A stretch of DNA of 64,000 nucleotides from Candidatus Yanofskybacteria bacterium RIFCSPLOWO2_01_FULL_42_49. Lineage in GTDB: Bacteria > Patescibacteriota > Minisyncoccia > 2-02-FULL-40-12 > GWA2-44-9. A program made the position numbers and the translations under genes. The notes below the pieces were generated by a model. The model saw nothing but the letters and a program-made list of their open reading frames with translations, did not search any database and was not told the DNA's origin. The stretch's first letter is position 1. Every line of letters starts with the position of its first letter. Where the stretch lies: positions 44,996 to 108,995 of the forward strand of contig MGKI01000011.1 in the NCBI GenBank assembly GCA_001795615.1. Direction: 5' to 3'. Shown here piece after piece: positions 1 through 43,335 of this stretch.

Positions 1-3000
1 CTTGACGATGAAGTTGAACGCCCCCGTGCCGATATTGTCTTCCTGTTGAAGCGAAGTCCCGCTCCCCCATTGTCCCGAAGCCGCTTTTGCCATTAACTCT
101 TCAGCCGTCATCGATAGCGACGCATATCTGACATCAAGCTTGAGCTCAGGATTCGCCATCCCGATGCCGGGGTTGCCGCTGCTTGTGCCGACAACAACAT
201 TCACTATTTTGTTGCTACCCTTTCTGCTCATTAGATTTCTTAATTCCACTTCGAATCCGCCGTCTGAAGTTTCATTGAATTCATAATTAAATTCGTTGAG
301 TACCCGTCCGATGACCTGTTTATATTGATATGGCTGAATGTTTTCAGACGGTACAGCTACGGCCAAACCGTCGTTCCTGCCAGACGGCATTACATAATCT
401 CCTTCCTTGAATTCGCCTTTCAATAGTACGGGGACTTGTCCTACATAAGCAACAACAATCCATTCTTTGTCATTGTCCCTCGGTGTATCCATTGAATTGC
501 CGCCGCGTATCCCTGACTTTGAAGAAGTCAACATGTAAAACGTCGCGTCATTTGTATCTTTGGTGACCTTCCCGTTCTTGATGCCAACAACTTCAAACGG
601 CAATATCTCTTCATTAGGGTCCAGCTTCTTCATCCATTCGGCATAGTCAACAGCTGCAGTTTCCCAACCATCATCATTTTGCGCAGATGCGTCTACCCTG
701 AAGAGGATTTGATTATCGCCCCCATCGTACCATATCAAATTTCCTGCAGCTTGTTGGGCTTGTTGCCATTTCAATACTCCATTTATATAAAAACCGATCT
801 GTGATTCATCATTTGCGTTACTCGAGTCAATCCGCAGATTTGCCGTAGTCCCGGAAGCGCTCTTTATATGAAGTTGCGTTCCCGGTGCCGTCGTCCCGAT
901 GCCGACGTTGCCGTCGTCTTGTATTCTTATTTTTTCAGCGCTTGGGTCAGCTCCGGAAGATGTTCCAACCGTAAATGTAAAATCACCATCATTTGTACCG
1001 ATAGCCCAATTACGTGCAGAGGCATGAGGGTTCGTAATCCAAATATCCGCAACACTGCTGATTGAATATCGACTTGTAAATTTGGCTACCGTTCCTGCTG
1101 AATCACCACGATCAACATGAAGCGGTGCCCCTGGCCCCGTCGTCCCGATGCCGACGTTGCCGGATTTTACGAAAAGCGTGTTAGACAATGATGCCGGTCC
1201 CTGGAAAGCAAGGGAACCGACGCCGTAAAGGTCGCCGGACACAAGAAGGTCGTTTGAGGTTGTTATCCAGTTTGATGCGGGGCCGGAGATGGTTGAAGTA
1301 CCGAAACGATTGTAGCTGACTGTTGCATATCCTCCAACCTGCAATGTGTTACCAAATAATCCGTAAGATGCACTGGCCGTGCCTTGGACTTCAAAGACAG
1401 TTGACGGGGCGGCGCCAAGACCAATCTTGAAGCCGGCGCGGTTAATGGTCAGATCGGCATCCAGGGTCATCGAGTTCACAAACTCATCAAAGTCCAGAGA
1501 GTTGGAAGCGACTCCGGCTGTGGCCCAGGTAAGAGCGCCTGAACTATTGGTCTGGAGGAATTGGTTGGCTGAACCGTCAGCCGAAGGCCAAGTGTATCTA
1601 ATACCATTAAGAGAGGTGACGCCTGAGATAGAAGCCACGCCTCCAAATGAGACCGTGCCTCTTACTTCAAGGTCGCCGCTTATCAGCAAATCATTGCTTG
1701 CGGAGATGTAATTTGAGTGACCCGTAGTTGCCGTCCCGAATCTTGAATAGGCGGCTGATGAGAATCCCCCGACTTGGAGTGTATTGCCGGTTAAGAGGTA
1801 GGAGGCGCTTGCCGTGCCTTGAAACTCGGCTCTGTCGTCGATGGTGAGTATGCCATCAGCCGTGATTAAACCGATGCCGGTTAAGGCTCCTGTGTTAGAT
1901 ATATCCCAATCATTGGTATTGATTTCTCCCGTATCTCCATTGTCTCCAAGAACGAATCTGCCCGCGATCTGGAAGTTGCTTGAAATACTGGCTTTGCCGT
2001 CAAAGAAGGCGTTGCCGTCGATTTCAAGGGCTCCGGAGATGAGAAGATCGTCAAATTTATCAACATTCGAAGAATAGCCGGTCGTGTTAATACCCAATCT
2101 TGAATATGAAGTTGTCGCTGTTGAAAAGCCAAGGGCAAAGTTAAAGCCCGATGAAGCAGTAAGGAGTCCGGTCTGCTGATCGACGGTCAGCGTGGTCTGA
2201 CTGTTCGGGTTCCTGATTCTGAATACATCCTGAGCCTGTGAAGAAGAAGCGTTAATCAAAAGAGAGAAGTTGGTCAATGAGTACGGATAAACGGTGCCGG
2301 TCATTTTGATGATATCCGTCTGGGCATCACCTAAACGAGAATTGCCTTCAACATTCAAGTCGCCAGTGATGTCGGTTGTTGACTGGACTGTTGTTCCGGA
2401 AAGAGTCAGGTTGCCGGCCACAAAAACATCCCCTTCGGCATCAACTACAAATTTGGGAGAAGTGTTGTTGACATAGGCGATGACATTGCCGTCGGCCACG
2501 GGAGAGGAGGGATTAACATAAAATGTGGCGTTGTCGGTATTAGTAAAATTGGGCCAAGTTCCGCCATGGGCTTGGGTGGGATTCCTTGTTGCCGTAAGCC
2601 GTCCCGTGAACGAACCGCTTCCGATGACGGTAAGTTCGGCGCTAGTGTTGGATGTGCCGATACCGATGTCACCGAAGACATAGAGATTGCCTGATATACT
2701 GGCTACTCCTCCAAACGAAGCCGTGCCTCGGGTTTCAAGATCGCCACTTATCAATAAATCATTGCTCGCCGAAATGTAATTGGCATGGCCCGTGGTTGAC
2801 GTGCCGAACCTTGAATAGCTGGCTGATGAGAAGCCTCCGACTTGAAGGGTATTGCCGGTTAAGAAGTAGGAGGCGGAAGCCGTGCCTTGGACTTCAAATT
2901 TAGTTTGAGGGGTAGTGGTATTAACGCCAACATTGCCTCCAGAAAGAACAGTGAATTTTGTATTAACATCCAATAAGCCCGCGGGTCCCGTAGTCCCAAT

Positions 3001-5775
3001 CCCCACATTGCCTCCCACCAAAACCAAAGTATTCGCCGAAGTATTAGCATTAACAGAAAGAGCTGTGTTGGCTCCGACTCGAAGGCCTTTTGAAATATCC
3101 ATACTTCCCGAGAATGATGTTGAACCTGTTCCGGAAAATGTGTTGATACCGCTTGTGAAGAAACTGCCTGATATACTGGCTACTCCTCCGAACGAAGCCG
3201 TGCCTCGGGTTTCAAGATCGCCACTTATCAATAAATCATTGCTCGCCGAAATGTAATTGGCATGGCCCGTGGTTGACGTGCCGAACCTTGAATAGCTGGC
3301 TGATGAGAAGCCTCCGACTTGAAGGGTATTGCCGGTTAAGAAGTAGGAGGCGGAAGCCGTGCCTTGGACTTCAAATTTAGTTTGAGGGGTAGTGGTATTA
3401 ACGCCAACATTGCCTCCAGAAAGAACAGTGAATTTTGTATTAACATCCAATAAGCCCGCGGGTCCCGTAGTCCCAATCCCCACATTGCCTCCCACCAAAA
3501 CCAAAGTATTCGCCGAAGTATTAGCATTAACAGAAAGAGCTGTGTTGGCTCCGACTCGAAGGCCTTTTGAAATATCCATACTTCCCGAGAATGATGTTGA
3601 ACCTGTTCCGGAAAATGTGTTGATACCGCTTGTGAAGAAACTGCCTGATATACTGGCTACTCCTCCGAACGAAGCCGTGCCTCGGGTTTCAAGATCGCCA
3701 CTTATCAATAAATCATTGCTCGCCGAAATGTAATTGGCATGGCCCGTGGTTGACGTGCCGAACCTTGAATAGCTGGCTGATGAGAAGCCTCCGACTTGAA
3801 GGGTATTGCCGGTTAAGAAGTAGGAGGCCGATGCTGTTCCTTGAACTTCAAATTTAGTTTGAGGGGTAGTGGTATTAACGCCAACATTGCCGCCAGAAAG
3901 AACAGTGAATTTTGTATTAACATCCAATAAGCCCGCGGGTCCCGTAGTCCCAATCCCCACATTGCCTCCCACCAAAACCAAAGTATTCGCCGAAGTATTA
4001 GCATTAACAGAAAGAGCTGTGTTGGCTCCGACTCGAAGGCCTTTTGAAATATCCATACTTCCCGAGAATGATGTTGAACCTGTTCCGGAAAATGTGTTGA
4101 TACCGCTTGTGAAGAAACTGCCTGATATACTGGCTACTCCTCCGAACGAAGCCGTGCCTCGGGTTTCAAGATCGCCACTTATCAATAAATCATTGCTCGC
4201 CGAAATGTAATTGGCATGGCCCGTGGTTGACGTGCCGAACCTTGAATAGCTGGCTGATGAGAAGCCTCCGACTTGAAGGGTATTGCCGGTTAAGAAGTAG
4301 GAGGCGGAAGCCGTGCCTTGGGTCTCGCTTCTCCCGTTTATGGTGAGCAGCGATGTAGGAGTTGTCGTTCCAATGCCGACGAGACCAGAGTTATCAATCC
4401 TCAATCTTTCCGTTCCTCCGGTTGAGAAAGCAAGGAGATCAGAGCCAGGACTGAAGAAACCGGTATTCTGGTCGATACCGAATGAGAATGACGGGGAAGC
4501 GGCGGTGTCTCTCTGAGCATAGAAGTATGAAGCTGAGGCGATGCCAGAAACATTGAGGTCTACTCCGCTTGAACCGCCGCCGATGGAAAGATTGCCACCG
4601 ATGGTTAGATTGCTTGATATGCTGGCTGTACCGACTAATTCAAAGGTTGTTTCAGGAGATATCGTGCCGATACCTACCCTGTTATTAGTCGCATCGACAT
4701 AGAATGTGTTCGTATCCACGGTCAGATCGCTCACGACAGAAAGAGTGCTGTTTAGAGCTGCGCCTCCTTCAAGTGTAGTACCTCCGGATATTTTAAGGGT
4801 TTTGGCATCTATTGTGTCGGGGTTTAAAGTAATCGGACCTATCCCACCGGTATTGGTGGGAGGAAGTTGATAGACAGTTGGTGTAAATCTTTGAAGAGAG
4901 TTGAAGTCACCGGCAAGACTTAAAAGATTTATCCTGTTTGCTTCGATAAGGGAAACGGCCTTGTCGAGACGTTGTTCAAGTTGAGCTAAGACCGCACCGG
5001 AAGGACCGACGGTAACTTCACGGACAACTGTTGTTTTCTTTGTTTGGCCATTGGTTATTGAATTTTGATTGATTACTGGAAATTGGTTATTGGTTATTTG
5101 ATGTTCAAGAGCAGTAATTCTTGATTCCTGTTCTTTTATTTTCTCCTCTCGCAACTTGAACGGATCCACGAGAATATATGTTTGAGTGCTATAGTCGTCG
5201 GTAAATAATCTGACAATGTTTCTGAATGAATCAACTATGCCGGCATATTTCTGTTCTCCCACCGCCACTTTTGCCATTTGAGGAGCAACATCATTTATGA
5301 AAGGACGGAGATATACCGACAAAAACAAAATGCCACCCACAAGTAAAAGAAACATCCTTGGGATGGCATTGGTCCTTACTAACTCTCCTCGCGATAGTGA
5401 ACCTATCTTAGAGGATGGTTTTGCACTGTAGGAACTTTTGTTTAAAAGAGCAGAAGAAAGAACATCAGAGTTTGTTAAATGGGATGTTTGAAATTCGTAT
5501 AAAGATTCTTTCAGAGGCCTGCCCTGAACAGAGTTGAAGGGCTTATGAACTAACTTAACGGCTAACGACTGGCGATAAGCGAGCAATGATTTTTCTTCAG
5601 CATACCATCTGCCGTGCTTTCCATATCGAATGGCCTGAATTCGGCCGGTTCTTGCAAGCCATCCGATGTGATCTTTAGCATATCCGTATTTCTCGGCTAA
5701 ATCATTTATGGGGAAATACCCCCTGGTTACAGGATCATCGTTTGAAATAAATTGTTTATTAAGAATTTCTCGCAT
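1..5775 (-). CDS. Giant cell-surface protein, 5' partial (C-terminus runs past the window start). N-terminal excisionase-like HTH segment (…IQAIRYGKHGRWYAEE…), then one TM helix, then long Gly/Thr/Ser/Asn-rich repeats with recurring N(V/I)GIGTT(T/G)P…L(D/T)V motifs (tail-fibre/adhesin-like).
   Basis: Hand translation of the minus strand in the frame with p mod 3 = 0 from ATG(5775) runs without stops through at least 4280 (…ETQGTASASYFLTGNTLQVGGFSSASYSRFGTSTTGHANYISASNDLLISGDLETRGTASFGG…). The ORF track lists no stop-bounded minus ORF here, consistent with the frame running off the edge. All + strand ORFs in 1379..4516 are antisense artefacts. Confidence 0.75.
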   Translation of the reverse strand, partial: MREILNKQFISNDDPVTRGYFPINDLAEKYGYAKDHIGWLARTGRIQAIRYGKHGRWYAEEKSLLAYRQSLAVKLVHKPFNSVQGRPLKESLYEFQTSHLTNSDVLSSALLNKSSYSAKPSSKIGSLSRGELVRTNAIPRMFLLLVGGILFLSVYLRPFINDVAPQMAKVAVGEQKYAGIVDSFRNIVRLFTDDYSTQTYILVDPFKLREEKIKEQESRITALEHQITNNQFPVINQNSITNGQTKKTTVVREVTVGPSGAVLAQLEQRLDKAVSLIEANRINLLSLAGDFNSLQRFTPTVYQLPPTNTGGIGPITLNPDTIDAKTLKISGGTTLEGGAALNSTLSVVSDLTVDTNTFYVDATNNRVGIGTISPETTFELVGTASISSNLTIGGNLSIGGGSSGVDLNVSGIASASYFYAQRDTAASPSFSFGIDQNTGFFSPGSDLLAFSTGGTERLRIDNSGLVGIGTTTPTSLLTINGRSETQGTASASYFLTGNTLQVGGFSSASYSRFGTSTTGHANYISASNDLLISGDLETRGTASFGGVASISGSFFTSGINTFSGTGSTSFSGSMDISKGLRVGANTALSVNANTSANTLVLVGGNVGIGTTGPAGLLDVNTKFTVLSGGNVGVNTTTPQTKFEVQGTASASYFLTGNTLQVGGFSSASYSRFGTSTTGHANYISASNDLLISGDLETRGTASFGGVASISGSFFTSGINTFSGTGSTSFSGSMDISKGLRVGANTALSVNANTSANTLVLVGGNVGIGTTGPAGLLDVNTKFTVLSGGNVGVNTTTPQTKFEVQGTASASYFLTGNTLQVGGFSSASYSRFGTSTTGHANYISASNDLLISGDLETRGTASFGGVASISGSFFTSGINTFSGTGSTSFSGSMDISKGLRVGANTALSVNANTSANTLVLVGGNVGIGTTGPAGLLDVNTKFTVLSGGNVGVNTTTPQTKFEVQGTASASYFLTGNTLQVGGFSSASYSRFGTSTTGHANYISASNDLLISGDLETRGTASFGGVASISGNLYVFGDIGIGTSNTSAELTVIGSGSFTGRLTATRNPTQAHGGTWPNFTNTDNATFYVNPSSPVADGNVIAYVNNTSPKFVVDAEGDVFVAGNLTLSGTTVQSTTDITGDLNVEGNSRLGDAQTDIIKMTGTVYPYSLTNFSLLINASSSQAQDVFRIRNPNSQTTLTVDQQTGLLTASSGFNFALGFSTATTSYSRLGINTTGYSSNVDKFDDLLISGALEIDGNAFFDGKASISSNFQIAGRFVLGDNGDTGEINTNDWDISNTGALTGIGLITADGILTIDDRAEFQGTASASYLLTGNTLQVGGFSSAAYSRFGTATTGHSNYISASNDLLISGDLEVRGTVSFGGVASISGVTSLNGIRYTWPSADGSANQFLQTNSSGALTWATAGVASNSLDFDEFVNSMTLDADLTINRAGFKIGLGAAPSTVFEVQGTASASYGLFGNTLQVGGYATVSYNRFGTSTISGPASNWITTSNDLLVSGDLYGVGSLAFQGPASLSNTLFVKSGNVGIGTTGPGAPLHVDRGDSAGTVAKFTSRYSISSVADIWITNPHASARNWAIGTNDGDFTFTVGTSSGADPSAEKIRIQDDGNVGIGTTAPGTQLHIKSASGTTANLRIDSSNANDESQIGFYINGVLKWQQAQQAAGNLIWYDGGDNQILFRVDASAQNDDGWETAAVDYAEWMKKLDPNEEILPFEVVGIKNGKVTKDTNDATFYMLTSSKSGIRGGNSMDTPRDNDKEWIVVAYVGQVPVLLKGEFKEGDYVMPSGRNDGLAVAVPSENIQPYQYKQVIGRVLNEFNYEFNETSDGGFEVELRNLMSRKGSNKIVNVVVGTSSGNPGIGMANPELKLDVRYASLSMTAEELMAKAASGQWGSGTSLQQEDNIGTGAFNFIVK
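2693..4330. repeat. Perfect 477-bp (159-codon) tandem repeat, about 3.4 copies, inside the giant surface-protein gene. A diverged extra copy lies near 1560..1800.
   Basis: Identical 113-aa antisense ORFs at 2915, 3392 and 3869, and identical minus ORFs at 2859 and 3336, give a 477-nt period. Unit ends visible at atatactggctactcctccgaacgaagccgtgcctcgggtttcaag (3172, 3649, 4126). Confidence 0.9.
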
Positions 5776-5984
5776 CACACAGAGTTAACAAAAACTCCAT
5801 GCAGCGCAAAACAACAAGTTGTTAAGGACCAATGAACGAGAGGAATCCCTCTCTAAAATTGGTGTTTTTATCTTCTCGAGAATCACGATAATCACGAGAC
5901 GAGATTCGCGAGAAAACAAATGCTACAGCCAATATATATATTATAACGCGCCTCGACATAGGGGCGCAAGCTCTAAATTTTAAA

Positions 5985-6095
5985 CCCTAAATCCTAAACA
6001 AATTCAAAGTTCAAAACCCAAAATTTAAAACAGTTTTTGGCTTAAATATTAGAATTTAGATATTGTTTAGAAATTAGAAATTAGAGATTAGAAAT
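5985..6095. repeat. Composite intergenic element, copy 3 (AT-rich module only, lacking the GC hairpin block), upstream of the giant surface-protein gene.
   Basis: ctaaatcctaaaca…gatattgtttagaaattagaaattagagattagaaatt shares both flanking modules with copies 1 and 2, but the 68-nt hairpin block is absent. Confidence 0.6.
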
Positions 6096-8856: not shown

Positions 8857-8905
8857 AATGTAGTACGAATACTGCGAATAATTCGTGATATTCGTATTGT
8901 GTTAT
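8857..8905. repeat. ACGAAT-rich leader element, copy A (short form), ending 11 nt upstream of the GT (7741..8856) start codon.
   Basis: aatgtagtacgaatactgcgaataattcgtgatattcgtattgtgttat shares the core with copies B–D. Confidence 0.7.
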
Positions 8906-10287: not shown

Positions 10288-10365
10288 TCCTCGCCAAAAC
10301 TAGCATAAAACTTGAACTTCTTCAACTGAGTATCCGCGACATTATGCATCAGCTTTATGCCAAAG

Positions 10366-10413
10366 ACTTCGTACCAATTTGTCTCATAACCATGCCGATC
10401 GGAATTCTTATAA
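10366..10413. repeat. 45-nt imperfect-palindrome stem-loop, copy i (TTGTCTCATAA-N21-TTATAAGACAA).
   Basis: ttgtctcataaccatgccgatcggaattcttataagacaa. Confidence 0.7.
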
Positions 10414-10443
10414 GACAACCCAAAAACCCCTTTCGGGGTTTTT

Positions 10444-10873
10444 GGGCCTGTGTTCAATAAGCCGAGTTCTGTCTGGTCTGCCTGTCGGCAGACAGGGGCA
10501 ATCATTTATCTGGGCCGCACATTACTGTGGGGCTCTAGCGAGCTAACTTTTCGAACCAGGCATTTTCTAAGTTTCCAAAGAAAGTGCCTGGAACGCTGCT
10601 CTTGCACTCGAGTAAGGATTTAGCCGTTTCATTCTCAACCTTTTATCCCCGGTTGAGACTAAGCTTATTAATGATTGTATCAATAATTCGGGATCAGCTT
10701 TCCTTCGCCTTTCGGCTCAGGACGTCTCTAATCGCACCTCTCGCATCACTGTGGACGGGTGTTACCCGCTACCCTGCTCCCTTCTTCGCATAAAGCTCCG
10801 AAGGGGAGTGCTCGGACTTTCCTCTCTTGCTTTTGGCGAGAGTAATTGCCTAAAACACAGGATAATTTAATCA
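10444..10873 (-). ncRNA. rnpB: RNase P RNA (bacterial type A).
   Basis: Minus strand carries the 5' P4 strand GAGAGGAAAGTCCGAGC, then GGGAGCAGGGTAGCGGGTAACACCCG (compare E. coli GGGCAGGGTGCCAGGTAACGCCTGG), then 3' CAGATAAATGATTGCC…ACAGAACTCGGCTTATTG (compare TAGATGAATGACTG…ACAGAACCCGGCTTATCG). P1 pairs CCTGTGTT with AACACAGG; P2 pairs GGCAAT with ATTGCC; P3 is ctctc/gagag. Followed by terminator hairpin aaaaacccctttcggggttttt (10422..10443). Confidence 0.8.
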
Positions 10874-10947
10874 TAACATTAAAAAAGTCAAAAAACAAGC
10901 GTTTGTTAGACAAACCCACCAAAGCAAAATGACAAGACAACAAGACA

Positions 10948-10996
10948 CCACTTGTCTCATAATCATGCCGACCGGAGTTGTTATAAGACAAGTTAG
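10948..10996. repeat. 45-nt stem-loop, copy ii, between the PaaX-like gene and rnpB.
   Basis: ttgtctcataatcatgccgaccggagttgttataagacaa. Confidence 0.7.
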
Positions 10997-11008
10997 GTGG
11001 AAGGAAAT

Positions 11009-11542
11009 TTATAAACCAAAGGTTTTTAATAGTTCCTCCTCTTTAAAACCGGCGGACTGAGCGATCAGAATATCTATATAATCGCTCACGCCTAATCTAC
11101 CTGCAATGTCCGCAATTTCTTCCTCACACGGATAAGGAAAAATAAACACACTTTTTTGAATCATTTCAAACCCAAGCAACTTGATTTTCTTTCGAAAATT
11201 AACTCTTTCTTTATGCATCTCTTCCGGAATATCAAAAACGATTAACCGCCATTTTTTATCCCACTTGCCTCTAACTTTATTCTTAAAATATTTTTTTATA
11301 GAAGTATCAAGCCATTTTCGGCCTTTATTTGTAAAAACAAAACAGTCGTTATTTTTGTTTTTTATGATTCCCCGTCGCTCAAGATTTTTAAACCCCACAT
11401 ATTTTTTTCTAGTTTTGTAGCCATAAATATTAAAATCACTATATCTACAACCCTTATAAGGGATCCTGCTCCAGCCGATACCTATATCTCTGACAACATG
11501 GGCAAGTTCTGTTAAAAATTTAATTACAAAATCTCCTTTCAT
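11009..11542 (-). CDS. PaaX-family-like transcriptional regulator (C-terminal domain pattern W-x3-W-x-L-I-V-F-D-I-P-E…R…L…GF…Q-x-S-V-F).
   Basis: WDKKWRLIVFDIPEEMHKERVNFRKKIKLLGFEMIQKSVFIFPYP matches the PaaX C-terminal domain consensus. A Cas2-like fold is also possible. 177 aa. Confidence 0.45.
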   Translation of the reverse strand: MKGDFVIKFLTELAHVVRDIGIGWSRIPYKGCRYSDFNIYGYKTRKKYVGFKNLERRGIIKNKNNDCFVFTNKGRKWLDTSIKKYFKNKVRGKWDKKWRLIVFDIPEEMHKERVNFRKKIKLLGFEMIQKSVFIFPYPCEEEIADIAGRLGVSDYIDILIAQSAGFKEEELLKTFGL

Positions 11543-11545
11543 AAA

Positions 11546-11590
11546 ATTTGTCTCATAAAGGTTCCGATCGGTATTATTATAAGATAATTA
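11546..11590. repeat. 45-nt stem-loop, copy iii, upstream of the PaaX-like gene.
   Basis: ttgtctcataaaggttccgatcggtattattataagataa. Confidence 0.65.
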
Positions 11591-12980: not shown

Positions 12981-14135
12981 CTACTGCGCTGACTTATAGT
13001 ATCCCAATGCTTCAAGCCCCGGCAGTTTTTCTCCGGCCAAGAATGCCAGCATTGCTCCCCCGCCGGTGGAGACGAAGTTTCCGCCAGAGGCGGATCCGCC
13101 TTCGGCGGAAAATTTATCAAAAATTTTGAATTTTGAAACTGCAGCAATTGTATCACCACCCCCGACTATTTTGTAAGCTTTGGACTCAACGATAGCTTCG
13201 GCAATTTTCTGGGTACCCATAGCAAAAGCCGAATTTTCAAAAAGTCCCATCGGCCCGTTCCATATTACCATAGACGCACCACCGATTGCATCAGCATATC
13301 TCTTTATCGTCTTTTCTCCTATATCAAGTATCTTATTGTCAAAAACAACAAAATCCTCCGGAATTAGAAGCTGGGAACTATCCAGGTCAAGACCAGCAAG
13401 AAGCTCCTTTGAATTCTCGTCCACAACTGAACTGCCCATGTCCTGGCCTTTTTCTTTAAGCACATCGTTTGCAACTACGCCACCAAGCAATATCTTTTCG
13501 GCTTTGTCTACAAAATTCTTGATAACCGACACCTTTGTTTCCGTTTTCGCTCCACCGATAATTATTATCTTTCCTAATTTAGAAGCATAAATTGCTTTTC
13601 GAAGTTGAACCGTCTCTTCCTGCACCAATAATCCGGCAAAACTTGGCAAAAATTCGGTTATGGCTGATACGGAAGCGTGGTCGCGATGACAAACCGCAAA
13701 ATTGTTATTAATGTAAATATCAAACCCCTTTGATAAGCTCAGGGCAAGCCCTTTATCATTTTCTTTTTCTCCGGATCCAGCAACTGCCGGATTGCGAATA
13801 TTATCCAAGAGACCGACACCCGGGTAGTTAGCAAGGTGCCCTTCAATGTCTTCGATATTTTTGATAAATACCACTTCGCGTCCCAGAAGGATATGAAGTT
13901 GGGGAATAAGATTGGAAAAAGAACTATCATCTTCGTGAAGGTGGGTAATCATTACCACCTTAGCTCCACGCTCAACTAGCCAGTCAATCATCACCTTTTG
14001 TTTCTTAATTCTAAACGATTCCGTGATTTCAGTAGCACACCCGCCTTCGCCAAGGCTTCGGACGGGCATGTCAAAATCAACCCTTAATAAAACTTTTTTG
14101 TTTTTTAAATCGGGAATATCGAGGACAGTTTTCAT
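12981..14135 (-). CDS. pgk: Phosphoglycerate kinase. Carries a 30-nt in-frame palindromic insertion (SAEGGSASGG) near the C-terminus.
   Basis: KKVLLRVDFDMP…GGGDTIAAV…STGGGAMLAFLAGEKLPGLEAL PGK signatures. 384 aa. Confidence 0.9.
   Translation of the reverse strand: MKTVLDIPDLKNKKVLLRVDFDMPVRSLGEGGCATEITESFRIKKQKVMIDWLVERGAKVVMITHLHEDDSSFSNLIPQLHILLGREVVFIKNIEDIEGHLANYPGVGLLDNIRNPAVAGSGEKENDKGLALSLSKGFDIYINNNFAVCHRDHASVSAITEFLPSFAGLLVQEETVQLRKAIYASKLGKIIIIGGAKTETKVSVIKNFVDKAEKILLGGVVANDVLKEKGQDMGSSVVDENSKELLAGLDLDSSQLLIPEDFVVFDNKILDIGEKTIKRYADAIGGASMVIWNGPMGLFENSAFAMGTQKIAEAIVESKAYKIVGGGDTIAAVSKFKIFDKFSAEGGSASGGNFVSTGGGAMLAFLAGEKLPGLEALGYYKSAQ
13080..13109. repeat. 30-nt GC-rich double mini-hairpin, in frame within pgk.
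   Basis: tccgcc-aga-ggcgga tccgcc-ttc-ggcgga, encoding SAEGGSASGG relative to canonical PGK. Confidence 0.8.
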
Positions 14136-14935
14136 AAAATTTTTGAAACAGTGGCTAAAATTTTTACAAACTCTTCTTTATTTACACTTGCACCGCCTAC
14201 CAAAACACCGTCAAATTGATTATTTTGTAAAAATTCCCGGGCATTAGCAGAAGTGATGGAACCGCCATATAAATAGGTCTTAGGTTTTAGGTTATAGGTT
14301 TTAGATAAAACTTCTTTGATTATAAATATTGACTCCGCAGCACTTTCGGGGGTATCGGAACGGGCGCCGGGAGTCGTGCTTATCGCCCAGACCGGCTCAT
14401 AGGCAATGATACACCGTGTGACTTCATCAGCCGAAAGACCGGCAAAAGTTGCTTCGACTTGTTTTTTTATGAAATCCTTCCAGCCGGAGGCTGGTTCGCC
14501 TTCGGCGGAAAAATCTCTTTCTCTCTCGCCTATGCAGACTATCGGTACCATTTCATTCCTTAAGACGGCCTTAAGTTTTTTATTTACCGTTTCGTTAGAC
14601 TCGTTTAACTTCCATCTTCTTTCGGAGTGGCCAACAATGACATATCCCACACCGAGTTTGCACAACATCGATCCAGAGACCTCGCCGGTTAGAGCCGTTT
14701 TGTCGTCTATCGATATGTCCTGCGCGCCAAGTTCCGCCTGATGTTCCAAGTGTGATGTTTTTAAAATCTTTCCGACTTCCTCAGTAAAAACAAAGGGGGG
14801 ACAAAATATCAGTCCGAATCTTTCGGCTTCCGATAAAGAACCGAGGTATTTGTCAGCCGAATCCAGAATCTCGACCGCTTCGGCCAGCGAATCGGGATGA
14901 TTCTTCCAATTGGCCACAATCAGTTGTTTAGTCAT
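14132..14935 (-). CDS. tpiA: Triosephosphate isomerase. Carries a 30-nt in-frame palindromic insertion (SAEGEPASGW).
   Basis: ANWKNHP…VGHSERR…CIGE…YEPVWAISTTPG TIM signatures. ATGA overlap with pgk. Confidence 0.9.
   Translation of the reverse strand: MTKQLIVANWKNHPDSLAEAVEILDSADKYLGSLSEAERFGLIFCPPFVFTEEVGKILKTSHLEHQAELGAQDISIDDKTALTGEVSGSMLCKLGVGYVIVGHSERRWKLNESNETVNKKLKAVLRNEMVPIVCIGERERDFSAEGEPASGWKDFIKKQVEATFAGLSADEVTRCIIAYEPVWAISTTPGARSDTPESAAESIFIIKEVLSKTYNLKPKTYLYGGSITSANAREFLQNNQFDGVLVGGASVNKEEFVKILATVSKIL
14480..14509. repeat. 30-nt GC-rich double mini-hairpin, in frame within tpiA.
   Basis: ccagcc-gga-ggctgg ttcgcc-ttc-ggcgga, encoding SAEGEPASGW. Confidence 0.8.
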
Positions 14936-16598: not shown

Positions 16599-16610
16599 CG
16601 CTTCGCTTGT

Positions 16611-16695
16611 GTAATACGAATTTTACAAATATCACACGAATACTGCGAATAATTCGTGGTATTCGTATACCATTCGTAGTATTCAGATTATGTTA
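16611..16695. repeat. ACGAAT-rich leader element, copy B, between GT2 and galT, ending about 12 nt upstream of the galT ATG.
   Basis: gtaatacgaattttacaaatatcacacgaatactgcgaataattcgtggtattcgtataccattcgtagtattcag. Confidence 0.8.
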
Positions 16696-17430
16696 ATCGT
16701 ACTTGCCAGTCATCAGATTCCATCTTATTTTAACTGTTTCCATAAGAACTTGGAAATACGCTTTTAGGCCGACATGGGACTCGGCGGCATTTTTCCAATC
16801 AACGGGAACTTCTTTTATCTTGTAGCCGAACTTCCTTGCCAAAGCAAGCACCTCGACATCAAATCCCCATCTTTCAATCGTAAGTTTGGGAAATATTTTC
16901 TCTGCCGCTTCGGCAGTGAAAAGTTTAAATCCTCTTTGGGTATCATTTATCCCGGGCACAGCCATAATTTGAATGAATAAATTGCCCATTTTACCAAAAA
17001 GACGGCGCCAGGCCGGTTCGCTTCCGGCGGCAACTTTATGGCCTGAAATAGCTATGGAACCGATAACCACTGAGTATCCTTCGCTTATATAAGGAATGAA
17101 CTTCTCCAAATGGTCCATAGAAGTTGAGTTATCAGCATCAGTGAAAAGACGCAGATCGCCGCTTGCTTTGGTCATGCCTTGCTTTACAGCATAACCCTTG
17201 CCACGGTTTATTTCGTAATCAAGAAGTTGAAGTGTTGAAAGCTCGGTTTTTAACAAACGGACAATATCATTGGTCTTATCTTTTGATCCGTCGGTAACAA
17301 CTAAAATTTCATGATCAATGTTTTTATCTTTCAGATAACAAAAAATGGGCCTGATAGTCTTTTCAATATTCTTCTCCTCATTGTAAGCAGGAATGATGAC
17401 GGATAAAAACATATAAATTATAATAACCAA
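16693..17430 (-). CDS. Glycosyltransferase family 2 (dolichyl/polyprenyl-phosphate sugar synthase-like).
   Basis: MFLSVIIPAYNEEKNI…VVTDGSKDKT…DADNS GT2 motifs. Contains a degenerate copy of the mini-hairpin insertion (AAGSEPAW). Confidence 0.8.
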   Translation of the reverse strand: MVIIIYMFLSVIIPAYNEEKNIEKTIRPIFCYLKDKNIDHEILVVTDGSKDKTNDIVRLLKTELSTLQLLDYEINRGKGYAVKQGMTKASGDLRLFTDADNSTSMDHLEKFIPYISEGYSVVIGSIAISGHKVAAGSEPAWRRLFGKMGNLFIQIMAVPGINDTQRGFKLFTAEAAEKIFPKLTIERWGFDVEVLALARKFGYKIKEVPVDWKNAAESHVGLKAYFQVLMETVKIRWNLMTGKYD

Positions 17431-23550: not shown

Positions 23551-23637
23551 AATGTAATACGAATTCTACGAATATCACACGAATACTGCGAATAATTCGT
23601 GGTATTCGCATATTATTCGTTATATTCGTATTATGTT
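23551..23637. repeat. ACGAAT-rich leader element, copy D, between parA and parB, ending 4 nt upstream of the parB ATG.
   Basis: aatgtaatacgaattctacgaatatcacacgaatactgcgaataattcgtggtattcgcatattattcgttatattcgtattatg. Confidence 0.8.
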
Positions 23638-23639
23638 GA

Positions 23640-24404
23640 TTAACTTGTTAACCTTATGACTTCCTCCGCCAATTGCCTATACGCTCTTGCCGCACGGGAA
23701 CCAGGGTCAAACTGCAAAATTGTTTTACCGAAACTTGGTGCTTCGGCCAATGACACCAACCGAGGAATAACAGCATTGAAAACTCGGCCGGGGAAATTTT
23801 TGTGGATCTCATTCATCACTTGGTGCGATAACTGGTTCCTCTTATCATACATTGTAAGCAATACCCCAAGCACTTGCAAATCAGGGTTAAGCCCTTGCCG
23901 GACAAGGTTGATTGTATTAAGCAGCTGGCTTAATCCTTCTAGTGCGAAGTATTCGCACTGAACCGGAATTACCACATTCTCTGAAGCAGCCAAAGCATTA
24001 ACGGTCAAAAGCCCTAGCGAAGGCGGACAATCAATCAGTATGTAGTCATAATTTGTACGAATTGAGTTTAGAACTTTCTTGAGACGGGTTTCTCTTTCAT
24101 CCATCGTAACCAGTTCTACGGTAGCACCGGCCAAGCTTTGAGCGGCGGGAAGAATGTCAAAGCCAAAGATTGATGTCTTTCTTATTATCGTCTCTGGATT
24201 TTGGTCAACGACAAGAGAATGATAAACATTGGGGTGATCTTGTTTTAGACTTACTCCAATACCAATCGTAGCATTTGCTTGAGAGTCTAAATCAACCAAT
24301 AAAACATATCTGCCCATAGCCGCAAGGTAGGCGGCTAAATTAGTGGCAGTAGTGGTCTTGCCAACTCCCCCTTTTTGATTGCAAACACTTATTACTCTAG
24401 CCAT
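23640..24404 (-). CDS. parA: Chromosome partitioning ATPase ParA/Soj.
   Basis: ISVCNQKGGVGKTTTATNLAAYLA deviant Walker A. 254 aa. Confidence 0.9.
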   Translation of the reverse strand: MARVISVCNQKGGVGKTTTATNLAAYLAAMGRYVLLVDLDSQANATIGIGVSLKQDHPNVYHSLVVDQNPETIIRKTSIFGFDILPAAQSLAGATVELVTMDERETRLKKVLNSIRTNYDYILIDCPPSLGLLTVNALAASENVVIPVQCEYFALEGLSQLLNTINLVRQGLNPDLQVLGVLLTMYDKRNQLSHQVMNEIHKNFPGRVFNAVIPRLVSLAEAPSFGKTILQFDPGSRAARAYRQLAEEVIRLTS

Positions 24405-35092: not shown

Positions 35093-36142
35093 ATGGCAGC
35101 TAAAATCAATCCGCCAGCTGGCGGACAAAAACTAATCGTCATTGTAGGCCCGACGGCTTCAGGAAAGTCGGATTTGGGCATCAAAATTGCTAAAAAAATT
35201 TCCGCCAGAGGCGGACCAGCCTCTGGCTGGAACGGTGCGGAAATAATTTCCGCGGATAGCCGACAAGTTTATCGTGGAATGGACGTCGGAACAGGAAAAG
35301 TTTTGCGAGACAAAACTTTTCCTGTTCCGAGTTCAAAAGTTAAAAGTGAAAAGTTAAAAGTTTTAAGAAATTATTTTTATTCTTCGGGGATTCGACATCA
35401 TTTGATAGATGTTGCTTCACCGAAAAAACAATTTACGGCTGATGACTTTAAAAGATTAGGGCAAAAAGCAATAAAAGAAATACTCGAGAAAAATAAAATC
35501 CCCATCATTGTCGGAGGTACCGGATTTTACATTGATATCTTGCTTGGCCGAATGTCGGTTGCCGAAGTCCCGCCAAATCCCAAATTGCGTAAATGCTTCG
35601 AGAGACTCAATACGGAGCATCTTTTCAAAATGCTTCGAAAACTAGACCTCCAACGAGCTAAAACAATAGGACCCAAAAACAAGCGCCGACTTATCCGAGC
35701 ATTGGAGATAATTCTAATAACCGGCAGACCGATACCAAAACCAGTATTAAGTATAAAGTATAAAGTATTATGGTTAGGGTTAAATCCTAAAAACTTGAAA
35801 GAGAGAATTAAGGTTCGCCTAGACGAGCGACTAAAACAAGGGATGATTGAAGAAGTTATAAATTTGCGCAAGCAAGGGGTAAGCTGGAAACGGCTTGATG
35901 GTTTCGGACTGGAATACCGCTATATCTCAAAGTACCTTCGAGAATTTTCAATTTCCAATTTTCAATTTTCAAAAAAAGATTACTACAATAATTTCAAGAA
36001 ATCATTCTATTACGGTAAACTCTTAAGAGATATAATCAAATACTCAAAGCGCCAGATGACCTGGTTCAAGAGAAATGAGGAAACATGTTGGATTAAAAAT
36101 TATTTGGAAGCAGAGAAATTGACGAAAAATTTTGTCTCATAG
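35093..36142 (+). CDS. miaA: tRNA dimethylallyltransferase with three in-frame low-complexity/palindromic insertions.
   Basis: GPTASGKSDLGIKIAKK…AEIISADSRQVYRGMDVGTGK…HHLIDV MiaA signatures. Inserts are SARGGPASGW, a KVKSEKLKV block and a FSISNFQFS block. Confidence 0.85.
   Translation: MAAKINPPAGGQKLIVIVGPTASGKSDLGIKIAKKISARGGPASGWNGAEIISADSRQVYRGMDVGTGKVLRDKTFPVPSSKVKSEKLKVLRNYFYSSGIRHHLIDVASPKKQFTADDFKRLGQKAIKEILEKNKIPIIVGGTGFYIDILLGRMSVAEVPPNPKLRKCFERLNTEHLFKMLRKLDLQRAKTIGPKNKRRLIRALEIILITGRPIPKPVLSIKYKVLWLGLNPKNLKERIKVRLDERLKQGMIEEVINLRKQGVSWKRLDGFGLEYRYISKYLREFSISNFQFSKKDYYNNFKKSFYYGKLLRDIIKYSKRQMTWFKRNEETCWIKNYLEAEKLTKNFVS
35201..35230. repeat. 30-nt GC-rich double mini-hairpin, in frame within miaA.
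   Basis: tccgcc-aga-ggcgga ccagcc-tct-ggctgg, encoding SARGGPASGW. Confidence 0.8.
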
Positions 36143-36177
36143 CTCTTCCGTACGGAATAGTTGTGAGACACTCGTAT

Positions 36178-37773
36178 CTATGCTCTTAACCTTTCTCTAA
36201 ATATCCCCTCGATTATTTGGGGATTTGCTTTACCCTTTGTTTCCCGCATGGCCATGCCGACAAGAAATTTTAGCGACGCTTCTTTCCCTTTTTTATAATC
36301 TTCCACGGCTTTAGGATTATCAGCAACAACCTTGTCCACCGCCATCTCAAGATCGCCGATGCTTGATAACTGTGCAAGATCTTTTTCTTCTATTATTTTC
36401 CCCGGAGAAGCTCCGGTCGCAAACATTTCTTTCAGCACTGTCTGGGCGCCGCTTGAAGAAACCTCGCCATGGAATATTCTGACGACAAGATCGGCCAGCA
36501 TTTCCGGTAACACTTTTGTATCTGCCAGTTCAGCATAAACCTCTTCGGCCATTCGTTTTAATTCGGTGATAAGATAGTTAGCTGCTAATTTAAAAAGTTG
36601 TTTGTGATGCTCCTCCAGTTTGCCCGCCCCGTAGTGTGATTTCGATTTTTCTTTGCCGGAGGAGGCATTCGAAATCTCTACTTCGGGGTCAAAAGATAAC
36701 AATTCCGAAGCCACATGTTCAAAATAATCTCCGAGCAGTTTGTCTGTGGTAAAAAGCTTAGTGTCCTTTTCTGGCAAACCGTATTGCTTGGCAAATCTTT
36801 CTCTTCTTTGTTGCGGTAACTCTGGAAGTCGGGACTTGATGTCTTCAATGTCGACGTCTTCAAAATGAAGCGGCGGCAAGTCCGGTTCCGGGAAATATCT
36901 GTAATCCTGCGCCTCTTCCTTTGTTCTCATTAAATACGTCTCCCCTTTTTTCTCATCCCAACCCCGTGTCTCTTGCTTTACCTTCTCCCCTGCCTCAAGA
37001 AGTTCGGTTTGTCTTTTTATCTCATAATTAACAGCATCGGCGGCAAACTTAATAGAGTTAATGTTTTTAACCTCAACTTTTGTCCCTAATTTGTTTGGTA
37101 ATTGTCCGCCAACTGGCGGATTGGAAATTGGTAATTCCGGTCGAAGTGATATATTCACTTCTACGCGCATCTGTCCTTTTTCCATGTCGGCGTCGGAAAC
37201 ATTTAAGTATCTCCAAATAAGCTGCAACTCCTCCGCAAATTTTTTGACCTCCTGTCCGCTTTCAAGATCTGGTTCTGTCACCAACTCCATAAGTGGCACC
37301 CCGGCACGATTAAAATCAACCAGTGAGTAGTCGGCACCAGTCGGATGGTACAACCGTCCAGCATCTTCCTCAAGATGTATTCGTGTTATTCTTATTCGTT
37401 TCGGATTTGAAATTTCTGGTTCTGAACTTGTTTCAGATTTTATATCAAGATACCCTTCATAACACAACGGTTTCTGGTATTGAGAAATCTGATAACCCTT
37501 AGGCAAATCTGGGTAAAAGTAATTTTTTCTTTCAAAAAAGGTGTCTTTTTCAATTTTACAATTCAACGCCAATCCGGTCATAATCACTTTTTTCACAGCA
37601 TCTTCGTTTGCGACGGGCAAGGTTCCCGGATGCCCCATACAAATTGGACAGACATTAACATTCGGGTGTTTTTCATCCGGATCATTTAACGAATCACAAA
37701 ACATTTTAGTTTTTGTCTTCAGCTCGGCGTGTATTTCCAGACCGATAACTGGCTTGTATTTAGTAGCGGCCAT
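36178..37773 (-). CDS. gatB: Asp/Glu-tRNA amidotransferase subunit B. Contains a 65-nt in-frame palindromic insertion (DPEVEISNASSGKEKSKSHYGAG).
   Basis: MAATKYKPVIGLEIHAELKTKTKMFC…NVCPICMGHPGTLP GatB N-terminus. 531 aa. Confidence 0.85.
   Translation of the reverse strand: MAATKYKPVIGLEIHAELKTKTKMFCDSLNDPDEKHPNVNVCPICMGHPGTLPVANEDAVKKVIMTGLALNCKIEKDTFFERKNYFYPDLPKGYQISQYQKPLCYEGYLDIKSETSSEPEISNPKRIRITRIHLEEDAGRLYHPTGADYSLVDFNRAGVPLMELVTEPDLESGQEVKKFAEELQLIWRYLNVSDADMEKGQMRVEVNISLRPELPISNPPVGGQLPNKLGTKVEVKNINSIKFAADAVNYEIKRQTELLEAGEKVKQETRGWDEKKGETYLMRTKEEAQDYRYFPEPDLPPLHFEDVDIEDIKSRLPELPQQRRERFAKQYGLPEKDTKLFTTDKLLGDYFEHVASELLSFDPEVEISNASSGKEKSKSHYGAGKLEEHHKQLFKLAANYLITELKRMAEEVYAELADTKVLPEMLADLVVRIFHGEVSSSGAQTVLKEMFATGASPGKIIEEKDLAQLSSIGDLEMAVDKVVADNPKAVEDYKKGKEASLKFLVGMAMRETKGKANPQIIEGIFRERLRA
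36624..36688. repeat. 65-nt imperfect palindromic element, in frame in gatB.
   Basis: cccgccccgtagtgtgatttcgatttttctttgccggaggaggcattcgaaatctctacttcgggg. Arms cccgtagtgtgatttcga and tcgaaatctctacttcggg. Confidence 0.8.
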
Positions 37774-40334: not shown

Positions 40335-40508
40335 GTTTTTCTCCTTAAAGAACTAAAATGCTCCAGTAGGAGCATTTTAGTTCACTTTCAAAAATTAAGC
40401 AAGTTTTTACTTCATCCCGCACCAATCTTATCCCTGCCTGCCGGCAGGCAGGCGTTGACCGCCATTAAGAAAGGTGGCGGGATTGGTGCGGGATTCCGTT
40501 CGCTTCGC

Positions 40509-40934: not shown

Positions 40935-41112
40935 TTTTAATAAATCTCTAAATCCTAATCTCTAAATCCTAAACACCTGCCTGCCGGCAGGCAGGAATCC
41001 AAAATTCTCAGCCTGAGGCTGATCCGCCTCTGGCGGAAAATATCTAAATGTTTTTGGATTTTGATATTTGGTCATTTGATATTGTTTAGAAATTAGAAAT
41101 TGCGAGTTATAT
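40935..41112. repeat. Composite intergenic element, copy 1 (AT-rich heptad module plus three GC hairpins), upstream of rplK.
   Basis: aaatctctaaatcctaatctctaaatcctaaacacctgcctgccggcaggcaggaatccaaaattctcagcctgaggctgatccgcctctggcggaaaatat…gatattgtttagaaattagaaatt. Nearly identical to copy 2. Confidence 0.85.
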
Positions 41113-43147: not shown

Positions 43148-43335
43148 AAGTGGTAAAATCTCTAAATCCCAATCTCTAAATCCTAAACACCTGCCTGCCG
43201 GCAGGCAGGAATCCAAAATTCTCAGCCTGAGGCTGATCCGCCTCTGGCGGAAAATATTTAAACGGTTTTGAGCTTTGATATTTGGTTATTTGATATTGTT
43301 TAGAGTTTAGAAATTAGAGTTTAGGGTTTTCTGTT
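43148..43335. repeat. Composite intergenic element, copy 2, upstream of the hypothetical gene 42389..43147 and downstream of gyrB.
   Basis: Same about 150-nt sequence as copy 1 with a few substitutions. Confidence 0.85.

Follow-up and report, generated by a model that had tools for sequence, protein, structure and literature searches.

The locus considered here is the gene for the RNase P RNA (rnpB), which lies on the minus strand of a 64,000-nt stretch of contig MGKI01000011.1 (the window, meaning the whole stretch that was analysed). Neighbouring genes place the organism near Candidatus Yanofskybacteria, within the Patescibacteria or candidate phyla radiation (CPR). The element under study is a 24-nt hairpin in this RNA (CCUGUCUGCCGACAGGCAGACCAG), which is almost certainly helix P19 of a type-A RNase P RNA, and which resembles a perfect 20-nt palindrome (CCTGCCTGCCGGCAGGCAGG) present in three copies elsewhere in the window. 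The coordinates of the gene, its parts and the related hairpins are collected in Table 1.

Table 1. Features of the rnpB locus and GC-rich hairpins in the window (positions of the window; a point marks features given no strand)
Feature	Position	Strand	Basis or remarks
rnpB, type-A bacterial RNase P RNA	10443-10861	-	RF00010 covariance-model match; synteny with relatives
Terminator-like hairpin 3' of rnpB, CCCAAAAACCCCGAAAGGGGUUUUUGGG	10419-10446	-	Sequence scan
P4 3' strand, conserved region V (CR-V), ACAGAACUCGGCUUA	10458-10472	-	Covariance-model alignment
Helix P19 region, CCUGUCUGCCGACAGGCAGACCAG, 24 nt	10473-10496	-	Between P2-3' and P4-3' in covariance-model alignment
P19 7-bp stem	10487-10493 paired with 10476-10482	-	GACA loop at 10483-10486
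P2 3' strand, GAUUGCC	10497-10503	-	Covariance-model alignment; partner GGCAAUU near 5' end
Promoter-like site TTGACT-16-TAAATT	10864-10891	-	Consensus scan; directly upstream of rnpB
30-nt double hairpin in PGK gene, in-frame, SAEGGSASGG	13080-13109	-	TCCGCC-GAA-GGCGGA + TCCGCC-TCT-GGCGGA on coding strand
30-nt double hairpin in TIM gene, in-frame, SAEGEPASGW	14480-14509	-	Repeat family D5
Single hairpin in miaA gene	35110-35125		Hairpin scan
Double hairpin in miaA gene, in-frame, SARGGPASGW	35201-35230	+	Hairpin scan
Single hairpin TCCGCC-AACT-GGCGGA inside gatB, NPPVGGQ	37105-37120	-	Hairpin scan
Perfect 20-nt palindrome CCTGCCTGCCGGCAGGCAGG, copy 1	40433-40452	.	Within ~80-nt composite structure, between rplK and thymidylate kinase gene
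Perfect 20-nt palindrome CCTGCCTGCCGGCAGGCAGG, copy 2	40976-40995	.	Within 160-nt repeat (family D4), between nusG and rplK
Intergenic double hairpin TCAGCC-TGA-GGCTGA + TCCGCC-TCT-GGCGGA	41008-41037	.	12 nt from palindrome copy 2; twin at 43222-43251
Perfect 20-nt palindrome CCTGCCTGCCGGCAGGCAGG, copy 3	43190-43209	.	Second copy of 160-nt repeat, downstream of gyrB

In a permissive scan (positions 10300-11000), the RNA was aligned over the full length of the Rfam family RF00010 (model positions 1-367) with 91.8 bits and an E value of 1.5e-28. Because this score lies below the RF00010 gathering score of 100 bits, rnpB is absent from the output of a default Rfam scan of the window, which reports two tRNAs only and no second rnpB, and routine annotation would overlook the gene. 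The shortfall in score coincides with lineage-specific inserts after conserved region I (CR-I) and in the P12 and P15-17 regions; the insert immediately 3' of CR-I, of about 25 nt, reads CCCCUUCGGAGCUUUAUGCGAAGAAGGG. The RNA is assigned to class A by its significant full-length match and by the presence of the conserved regions and of both strands of the P4 pseudoknot, GAGGAAAGUCCG and ACAGAACUCGGCUUA. The P1, P2 and P4 pairings and all conserved regions are intact, and the P4 3' strand is invariant across all aligned relatives. Homologous, syntenic genes are found in L001, L135, L139 and others (handles beginning with L denote the lineages and contigs used for comparison), among which L135 is an independent contig from another assembly of the same species, with an rnpB that is 99.5% identical and an identical P19 region. 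The promoter-like site directly upstream is putatively the promoter of rnpB; both of its hexamers are kept in L001, in which the terminator-like hairpin is likewise conserved, with compensatory changes. A 39-nt additional hairpin ahead of P18 is common to L001 and L080. In L094 a TCCGCC-AGA-GGCGGA hairpin with A and T runs either side lies directly 3' of rnpB in a terminator-like arrangement.

The hairpin had been noticed in a sequence-only reading of this DNA as a 7-bp structure, gtctgcc-gaca-ggcagac, between the 3' strands of P2 and P4, and both the covariance-model alignment and the fold bear this out. The RNA folds as GUCUGCC-GACA-GGCAGAC, and the stem can be extended by CUG/CAG pairing across one bulged C (minimum free energy (MFE) -14.1 kcal/mol, z -4.3), the Rfam model leaving all 24 nt in unpaired positions. 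P19 is a recognised peripheral helix of variable length between P2-3' and P4-3', which extends the P2/P3 stack; it has been lost many times, and in RNAs without the helix a 4-nt linker replaces it (PMC9945441, PMC12974513). Because the position of the hairpin in the covariance-model alignment matches this definition, its identity as P19 is close to certain. The same reading took the junction to be normally a few nucleotides long, which is true only for RNAs without P19, and its view of the hairpin as an extra, anomalous element near the catalytic core fails against the alignment and the literature. Since the P19 position is a recognised one, and most surveyed rnpB genes have the helix, the hairpin is a normal feature at its normal place and does not intrude on the catalytic core. 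In itself a divergent RNase P RNA with a P19 helix is an ordinary finding, and by analogy the window P19 probably acts as it does elsewhere, as a dispensable stacking helix.

The state of the P19 site was surveyed by scanning metagenome contigs for the motifs on either side of it, with no P19 sequence required, which gave at least 120 rnpB matches. Among the matches listed, 99 of 120 carry an insert of 13-30 nt at the site (86 distinct sequences), and P19 is the majority state; the site holds 7 nt or fewer in 21 of the 120, and exactly 4 nt in 18 of these. A fold of at least 4 bp is found in 98% of the distinct inserts listed, with a mean MFE of -9.6 kcal/mol versus -2.9 kcal/mol for shuffles. 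The structure of P19 is therefore conserved while its sequence varies, as is also seen between the window and L054, where a U-A pair replaces C-G.

Closer to the window, rnpB was recovered from 17 related lineages via synteny with PGK and an adjacent PaaX/Cas2-like gene. At the P19 site the window and L135 have 24 nt, and so does L054, with a near-identical sequence (TCCGCCTGCCATCAGGCAGGCCAG); inserts of 17 nt are found in L001 (CTCCGCCAGTTGGCGGA) and in L136/L137 (CTCCGCCAACCGGCGGA), and inserts of 18, 20, 29 and 30 nt in L028, L142, L143 and L185, respectively. A linker without a hairpin is found in the others: CCAG in L139 and L120, TCAG in L138, and CTCG in L080, L094 and L146. The Yanofskybacteria-like group thus contains at least seven unrelated P19 hairpins along with six members that have the 4-nt linker alone, and the nucleotides flanking the hairpins are mostly those of the linker in P19-less forms (YC…AG, or CTC…G/A). 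The P19 site is a hotspot in this CPR group, at which hairpins are repeatedly gained, lost or replaced while the linker nucleotides stay constant. Universal presence of the hairpin in the lineage, named beforehand as an outcome that would tell against an inserted element, is not what is found among these close relatives.

The closest rnpB from another species is that of L139 (84% identity), which reads GCC-CCAG-ACAGAAC across the site; the window sequence is identical but for exactly 20 extra nt, and the gap is shared by L139 and L140. Presence and absence of a segment of the palindrome's length (20 nt) are thus both observed at the P19 site among close relatives, as either a gain or a loss would give. 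In an rnpB tree of 14 taxa, built from about 380 columns with the P19 nucleotides removed, the window groups with L139 at 78% bootstrap and with L139 and L138 at 51%; L139 and L138 are both without P19. Because these nearest relatives lack the helix, we infer that a single gain in the window lineage is more parsimonious than two exact losses. L054, the sole other lineage with the 24-nt hairpin type, groups with the window in 0% of bootstraps, and its similar hairpin therefore needs a common external source or recombination. A scheme of ancestral P19 and two losses, drawn from a first tree of 9 taxa, was withdrawn after wider sampling, in which the nearest relatives are without P19. An organism tree from the syntenic proteins did not resolve, their identities being mosaic from gene to gene.

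The palindrome was confirmed at the three sites at which the sequence-only reading had placed it, with the first coordinate (40436) displaced by 2-3 nt. The rnpB hairpin matches a 19-mer of the palindrome with two mismatches on the plus strand and three on the minus strand, and is the only further match to CCTGCCTGCCGGCAGGCAGG in the window at three mismatches or fewer (0.01 expected per shuffled window). P19 and palindrome are identical at 17 of 20 positions, the three differences are all transitions, and the length of the insert relative to L139 is that of the palindrome. In the RNA the register is shifted by 4 nt from the palindrome centre, such that the palindrome would read GCCUGCC-GGCA-GGCAGG+C. 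In this register the L054 hairpin (GCCUGCC-AUCA-GGCAGGC) is identical to the palindrome at 7/7 stem pairs, and that of the window at 6/7, with one compensated pair and one loop change. The claim that two differences amount to a compensatory base-pair swap was correct (U-A for C-G in the RNA register); the third difference lies in the loop.

The palindrome is also widespread beyond the window, with exact copies in 35 stretches of IMG/VR viral contigs of 38-68% GC, up to six of them on one 29.5-kb contig. In viral contig L174 the variable loop of a 92-nt tRNA-Met (2239-2330) is exactly where it lies (2284-2303). It adjoins tRNA fragments in L151 (8616) and L181 (515), and short tandem repeats flank many of the viral-contig copies (L150-L184). 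A general association with tRNAs was rejected, the 35 viral stretches containing one intact tRNA and two fragments in such positions. Within the window, copy 1 forms one arm of a three-way structure at 40401-40481 with a 14-bp closing stem (-52.3 kcal/mol, z -6.1). The 160-nt repeat is present at 40942-41101 and 43156-43315 in copies that are 94% identical, with the palindrome and a double hairpin in the middle and AT-rich arms that by eye appear inverted (…CTAAATCCTAAACA / TGTTTAGAAATTAG…), an organisation that looks like that of a miniature inverted-repeat transposable element. A third locus, 5968-6091, has arms related to those of the 160-nt repeat and no GC-rich core.

The palindrome belongs with a broader set of short GC-rich hairpins. 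In 1.13 Mb of CPR DNA outside rnpB, TCCGCC (25 copies) and CCTGCC (16 copies) head the list of GC-rich perfect hairpin stems, and six composition-matched control stems are essentially never found in the same DNA. The 17-nt P19 type has precisely the TCCGCC stem; the CCTGCC stem is that of the palindrome, and the 24-nt type resembles it. Hairpins of the form TCCGCC-N3/4-GGCGGA occur at 11 per 100 kb in the window and at 4.7 per 100 kb in related contigs. The double hairpin in the PGK gene, just before the conserved STGGGA motif, is absent in the L080, L001, L002 and L059 orthologues and in most homologues; the site is a hotspot at which insertions are patchily distributed across 60 homologues, and the insert is 30/30 identical in L146, where the flanks are 62-78% identical and the protein only 64%. 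The TIM double hairpin is absent in the L001, L002 and L080 orthologues. The TCCGCC double hairpins of PGK and TIM, as distinct from the 20-nt palindrome, are thus in-frame and patchy among orthologues, in the manner of Rickettsia palindromic elements (RPEs) and in a different phylum. An RNA gene is affected in L080, whose rnpB has an 18-nt insertion (CCTGTCCGCCTTTGGTGG, in the region 1480-1590) with a TCCGCC-type hairpin at the tip of the P12-region helix; the insertion is absent in the window, L135, L139 and L138, and L080 itself is without P19. The GC-rich hairpin family is therefore demonstrably invasive and insertion-prone, including in structured RNA genes.

The in-frame modules, of 15-30 nt, encode short Ser/Ala/Gly/Pro-rich segments in housekeeping genes. 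A similar peptide in a GT2 match (AAGSEPAWRR) was rejected as an insertion, being conserved sequence. No exact match to the 30-nt double hairpin was found in the viral contigs. In the literature searched by topic and sequence, no earlier description of these CPR hairpin modules, including the in-frame hairpins of PGK and TIM, was found.

The most likely of the origins considered for the window P19 can be outlined from these sequence comparisons. The ancestral state would be the 4-nt linker CCAG between P2-3' and P4-3', into which a 20-nt palindromic module, CCTGCCTGCCGGCAGGCAGG, from the invasive family of short GC-rich hairpins would have been inserted. Three transitions would have followed, two forming the compensatory U-A pair and one in the loop, with the 7-bp stem and 4-nt loop kept. 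The sequence-only reading had likewise proposed a palindromic element inserted into rnpB. Such an origin is plausible, though unproven, because P19 turns over at this site, L139 lacks exactly the 20 nt, and the repeat family is prone to insertion; the chances that the palindrome was the source seem to us evenly balanced, and the insertion is in any case unneeded to explain why a helix is present.

Several points weigh against insertion of the palindrome. The earlier 9-taxon tree favoured ancestral presence of P19, the trees draw on a single short RNA with about 380 columns, and the identities among the relatives conflict from one neighbouring protein to another. P19 has an ancient origin and a wide distribution, and palindromes are easily lost by precise deletion, so L139 and L138 could represent two losses; a CC..CC microhomology flanks the 20 nt. 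The gene is itself mosaic, with the P1-P3 type and the P18 type found in all four combinations. The site has no target-site duplication, and we know of neither a mechanism nor an enzyme for the insertion. The 47 other palindrome copies examined are all exact (the searches required exact matches), and the P19 copy has three mismatches. In a control with 62 distinct P19 sequences, mostly from other organisms, the best 18-mer matches to the rnpB-masked window scored between 12 and 16, and the window's own P19, at 16/18, was tied with an unrelated P19 matching an unrelated site. A comparison of templating from the own contig with that from other contigs gave a mean percentile of 0.44 (Wilcoxon p 0.20, n=56), at low power, with 3 kb of flank per contig. 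Compared with flanking DNA, rnpB is about 10 times denser in hairpins with the family motifs, conserved core helices among them; structural RNAs may thus favour stems of this type anyway.

The strongest competing explanation is that the helix is an ordinary P19, inherited or moved by recombination of rnpB, that the P19-less relatives are deletions, and that the likeness to the palindrome is convergence, stable hairpins in an AT-rich genome drawing on few C-rich/G-rich stems. It fits the majority status of P19 both among the 120 matches listed and in the clade outgroups, and the near-identical 24-nt P19 of L054 on a different rnpB backbone is consistent with recombination in a mosaic gene. The explanation is also favoured by the P19 of other organisms, which match window hairpins almost as well as the window's own does, by the P19 of L107, whose stem and loop are the same as those of the hairpin at 13095, by the recurrence of CUGCC/GGCAG and CCGCC/GGCGG stems in the P19 of unrelated lineages, and by the non-significant own-contig test. 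Against this, it needs at least two independent exact 20-nt deletions (in L139 and L138) that leave the related linkers CCAG and TCAG, or else an unsampled recombination donor, and the insert is as long as the palindrome. The idea suggested by the other-organism control, that the similarity is generic to GC-rich hairpins, is weakened as well, since 1.1 Mb of DNA is essentially devoid of the composition-matched stems and it is therefore untrue of exact stems that any GC-rich hairpin looks alike. We regard this explanation as a serious but, on balance, doubtful one.

The rnpB locus has also been rearranged in some relatives, the gene being inverted with respect to the same flanking genes in L136 (12478-12859), L137 (2600-2981) and L146 (9032-9409). 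Together with the mosaic P1-P3 and P18 alleles, this suggests rearrangement and recombination at the locus.

A local origin, in which template switching or short duplications copied the native linker and P4 sequence and no repeat element took part, is improbable. It would account for CTGTCTG in the 5' arm, to which the downstream CAGACAG, made up of linker CAG and P4 ACAG, is reverse-complementary, and for the 3' side, CAGAC-CAGAC, which resembles a tandem duplication. The arm of L054, GCCTGCC, lacks this signature and is closer to the palindrome, however, and part of the complementarity in the window comes from one compensated pair (G-to-A / C-to-U); nor would this origin explain why 17 of 20 positions agree with a 20-mer present in several copies. 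That the hairpin is meaningless, because rnpB has decayed or lost its function or the assembly is at fault, as the sub-threshold RF00010 score might suggest, is scarcely credible given the intact conserved regions and P1, P2 and P4 pairings, the conserved promoter-like and terminator-like signals, the independent and nearly identical gene of L135, and the lack of any other rnpB found in the window.

If the palindrome insertion is generalised, CPR bacteria would carry GC-rich modules of 15-30 nt that insert precisely, without target duplication, wherever an extra stem or loop is tolerated. Such sites would include surface loops of housekeeping enzymes, the variable loop of a tRNA and the peripheral loops of RNase P RNA, with the palindrome itself ranging over a much wider set of contigs; in this lineage P19 would be repeatedly created and destroyed by the modules, and the helix would be a domesticated selfish hairpin. 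This wider proposal is a tentative one, which we hold at slightly less than an even chance. If P19 did come from an invasive module, selfish DNA would have supplied a structural element to an essential ribozyme, and the sporadic gain and loss of peripheral helices long recorded in comparative studies of RNase P would have a mechanism.

Other repeats and genes lie around the locus. A direct repeat of 38-43 nt with an internal dyad (TGTCTYATAA…CCGNTCGG…TTATRAGACA) occurs at 10376-10418, 10949-10991, 11545-11587 and 36129-36171. Copies stand on both sides of a PaaX_M/Cas2-like gene (11009-11542), as they do in L001, L003 and L135, and a third lies downstream of rnpB. These dyad repeats (39-43 nt) were considered as part of rnpB and rejected, since they belong to the PaaX/Cas2-like gene and flank the same gene in L001, L003 and L135. 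In other relatives the slot of this gene holds a Y1 transposase gene or is empty, and in L146 the PaaX-like gene is located elsewhere; the arrangement could be a small mobile cassette, or the repeats could serve as operator sites. Further away, five tandem units of about 477 nt at 1614-4412, four of them 78-99% identical, each contain a 113-aa open reading frame (ORF) with no Pfam match. A repeat of 33-88 nt rich in inverted ACGAATA/TATTCGT motifs, at 8865-8897, 16610-16697 and 23553-23640, lies at the ends of three minus-strand genes, which may have it in common as a regulatory element.

A Y1 (IS200/RAYT-type) transposase gene adjoins rnpB in several relatives (L138:12690-13295, L139:12497-13120, L142-L145, L147, L149 and L028/L059). 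Inverted hairpins flank the relatives' Y1 gene, and those of L139 start with GTAG (GTAGAGG-N5-CCTCTAC), the classical arrangement of a repetitive extragenic palindromic (REP) element and its RAYT. A link between Y1/RAYT and the hairpin family was rejected, the Y1-flanking hairpins being unrelated to TCCGCC/CCTGCC and the window containing no Y1 gene.

Among known systems, the window hairpin is structurally no different from P19 of bacterial RNase P RNA, which is found in type B and sporadically in type A: it occupies the same place, forms a simple hairpin whose length varies, and is absent in some relatives, which have the 4-nt linker. The group is unusual in the rate of turnover within a single genus-level group. 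REP elements are palindromes tagged with GTAG or CGTC (PMC3733652). They and the bacterial interspersed mosaic elements (BIMEs), with their Y1-type RAYT, resemble the present hairpins in being short GC-rich palindromes, often paired and intergenic, but REPs are extragenic, whereas the hairpin modules here also lie inside ORFs. Repetitive sequences made of short tandem repeats (STRRs) were reportedly described by Vioque in 1997 (Nucleic Acids Res 25:3471, as cited in PMC2858038) inside the RNase P RNA gene of heterocyst-forming cyanobacteria. These are tandem heptamers located in P12, and they likewise represent a genome-wide family of short repeats inside a variable peripheral helix of rnpB; here, by contrast, a single 20-nt palindrome at P19 is concerned, and its derivation from a repeat is proposed without exact identity. 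RPEs are palindromes that occur, in-frame, in coding as well as non-coding DNA, comparable to the modules in PGK, TIM, miaA, gatB and rnpB loops, and differ in being roughly 100-150 bp long, unlike the 15-30-nt modules here, which are of unrelated sequence and from another phylum. Rickettsia felis has 728 RPEs, of which 85 are in ORFs and 3 in RNA genes (PMC1166351). The nearest precedents for the window P19 are the RPEs that lie in ORFs and RNA genes and the STRRs within the rnpB of cyanobacteria.

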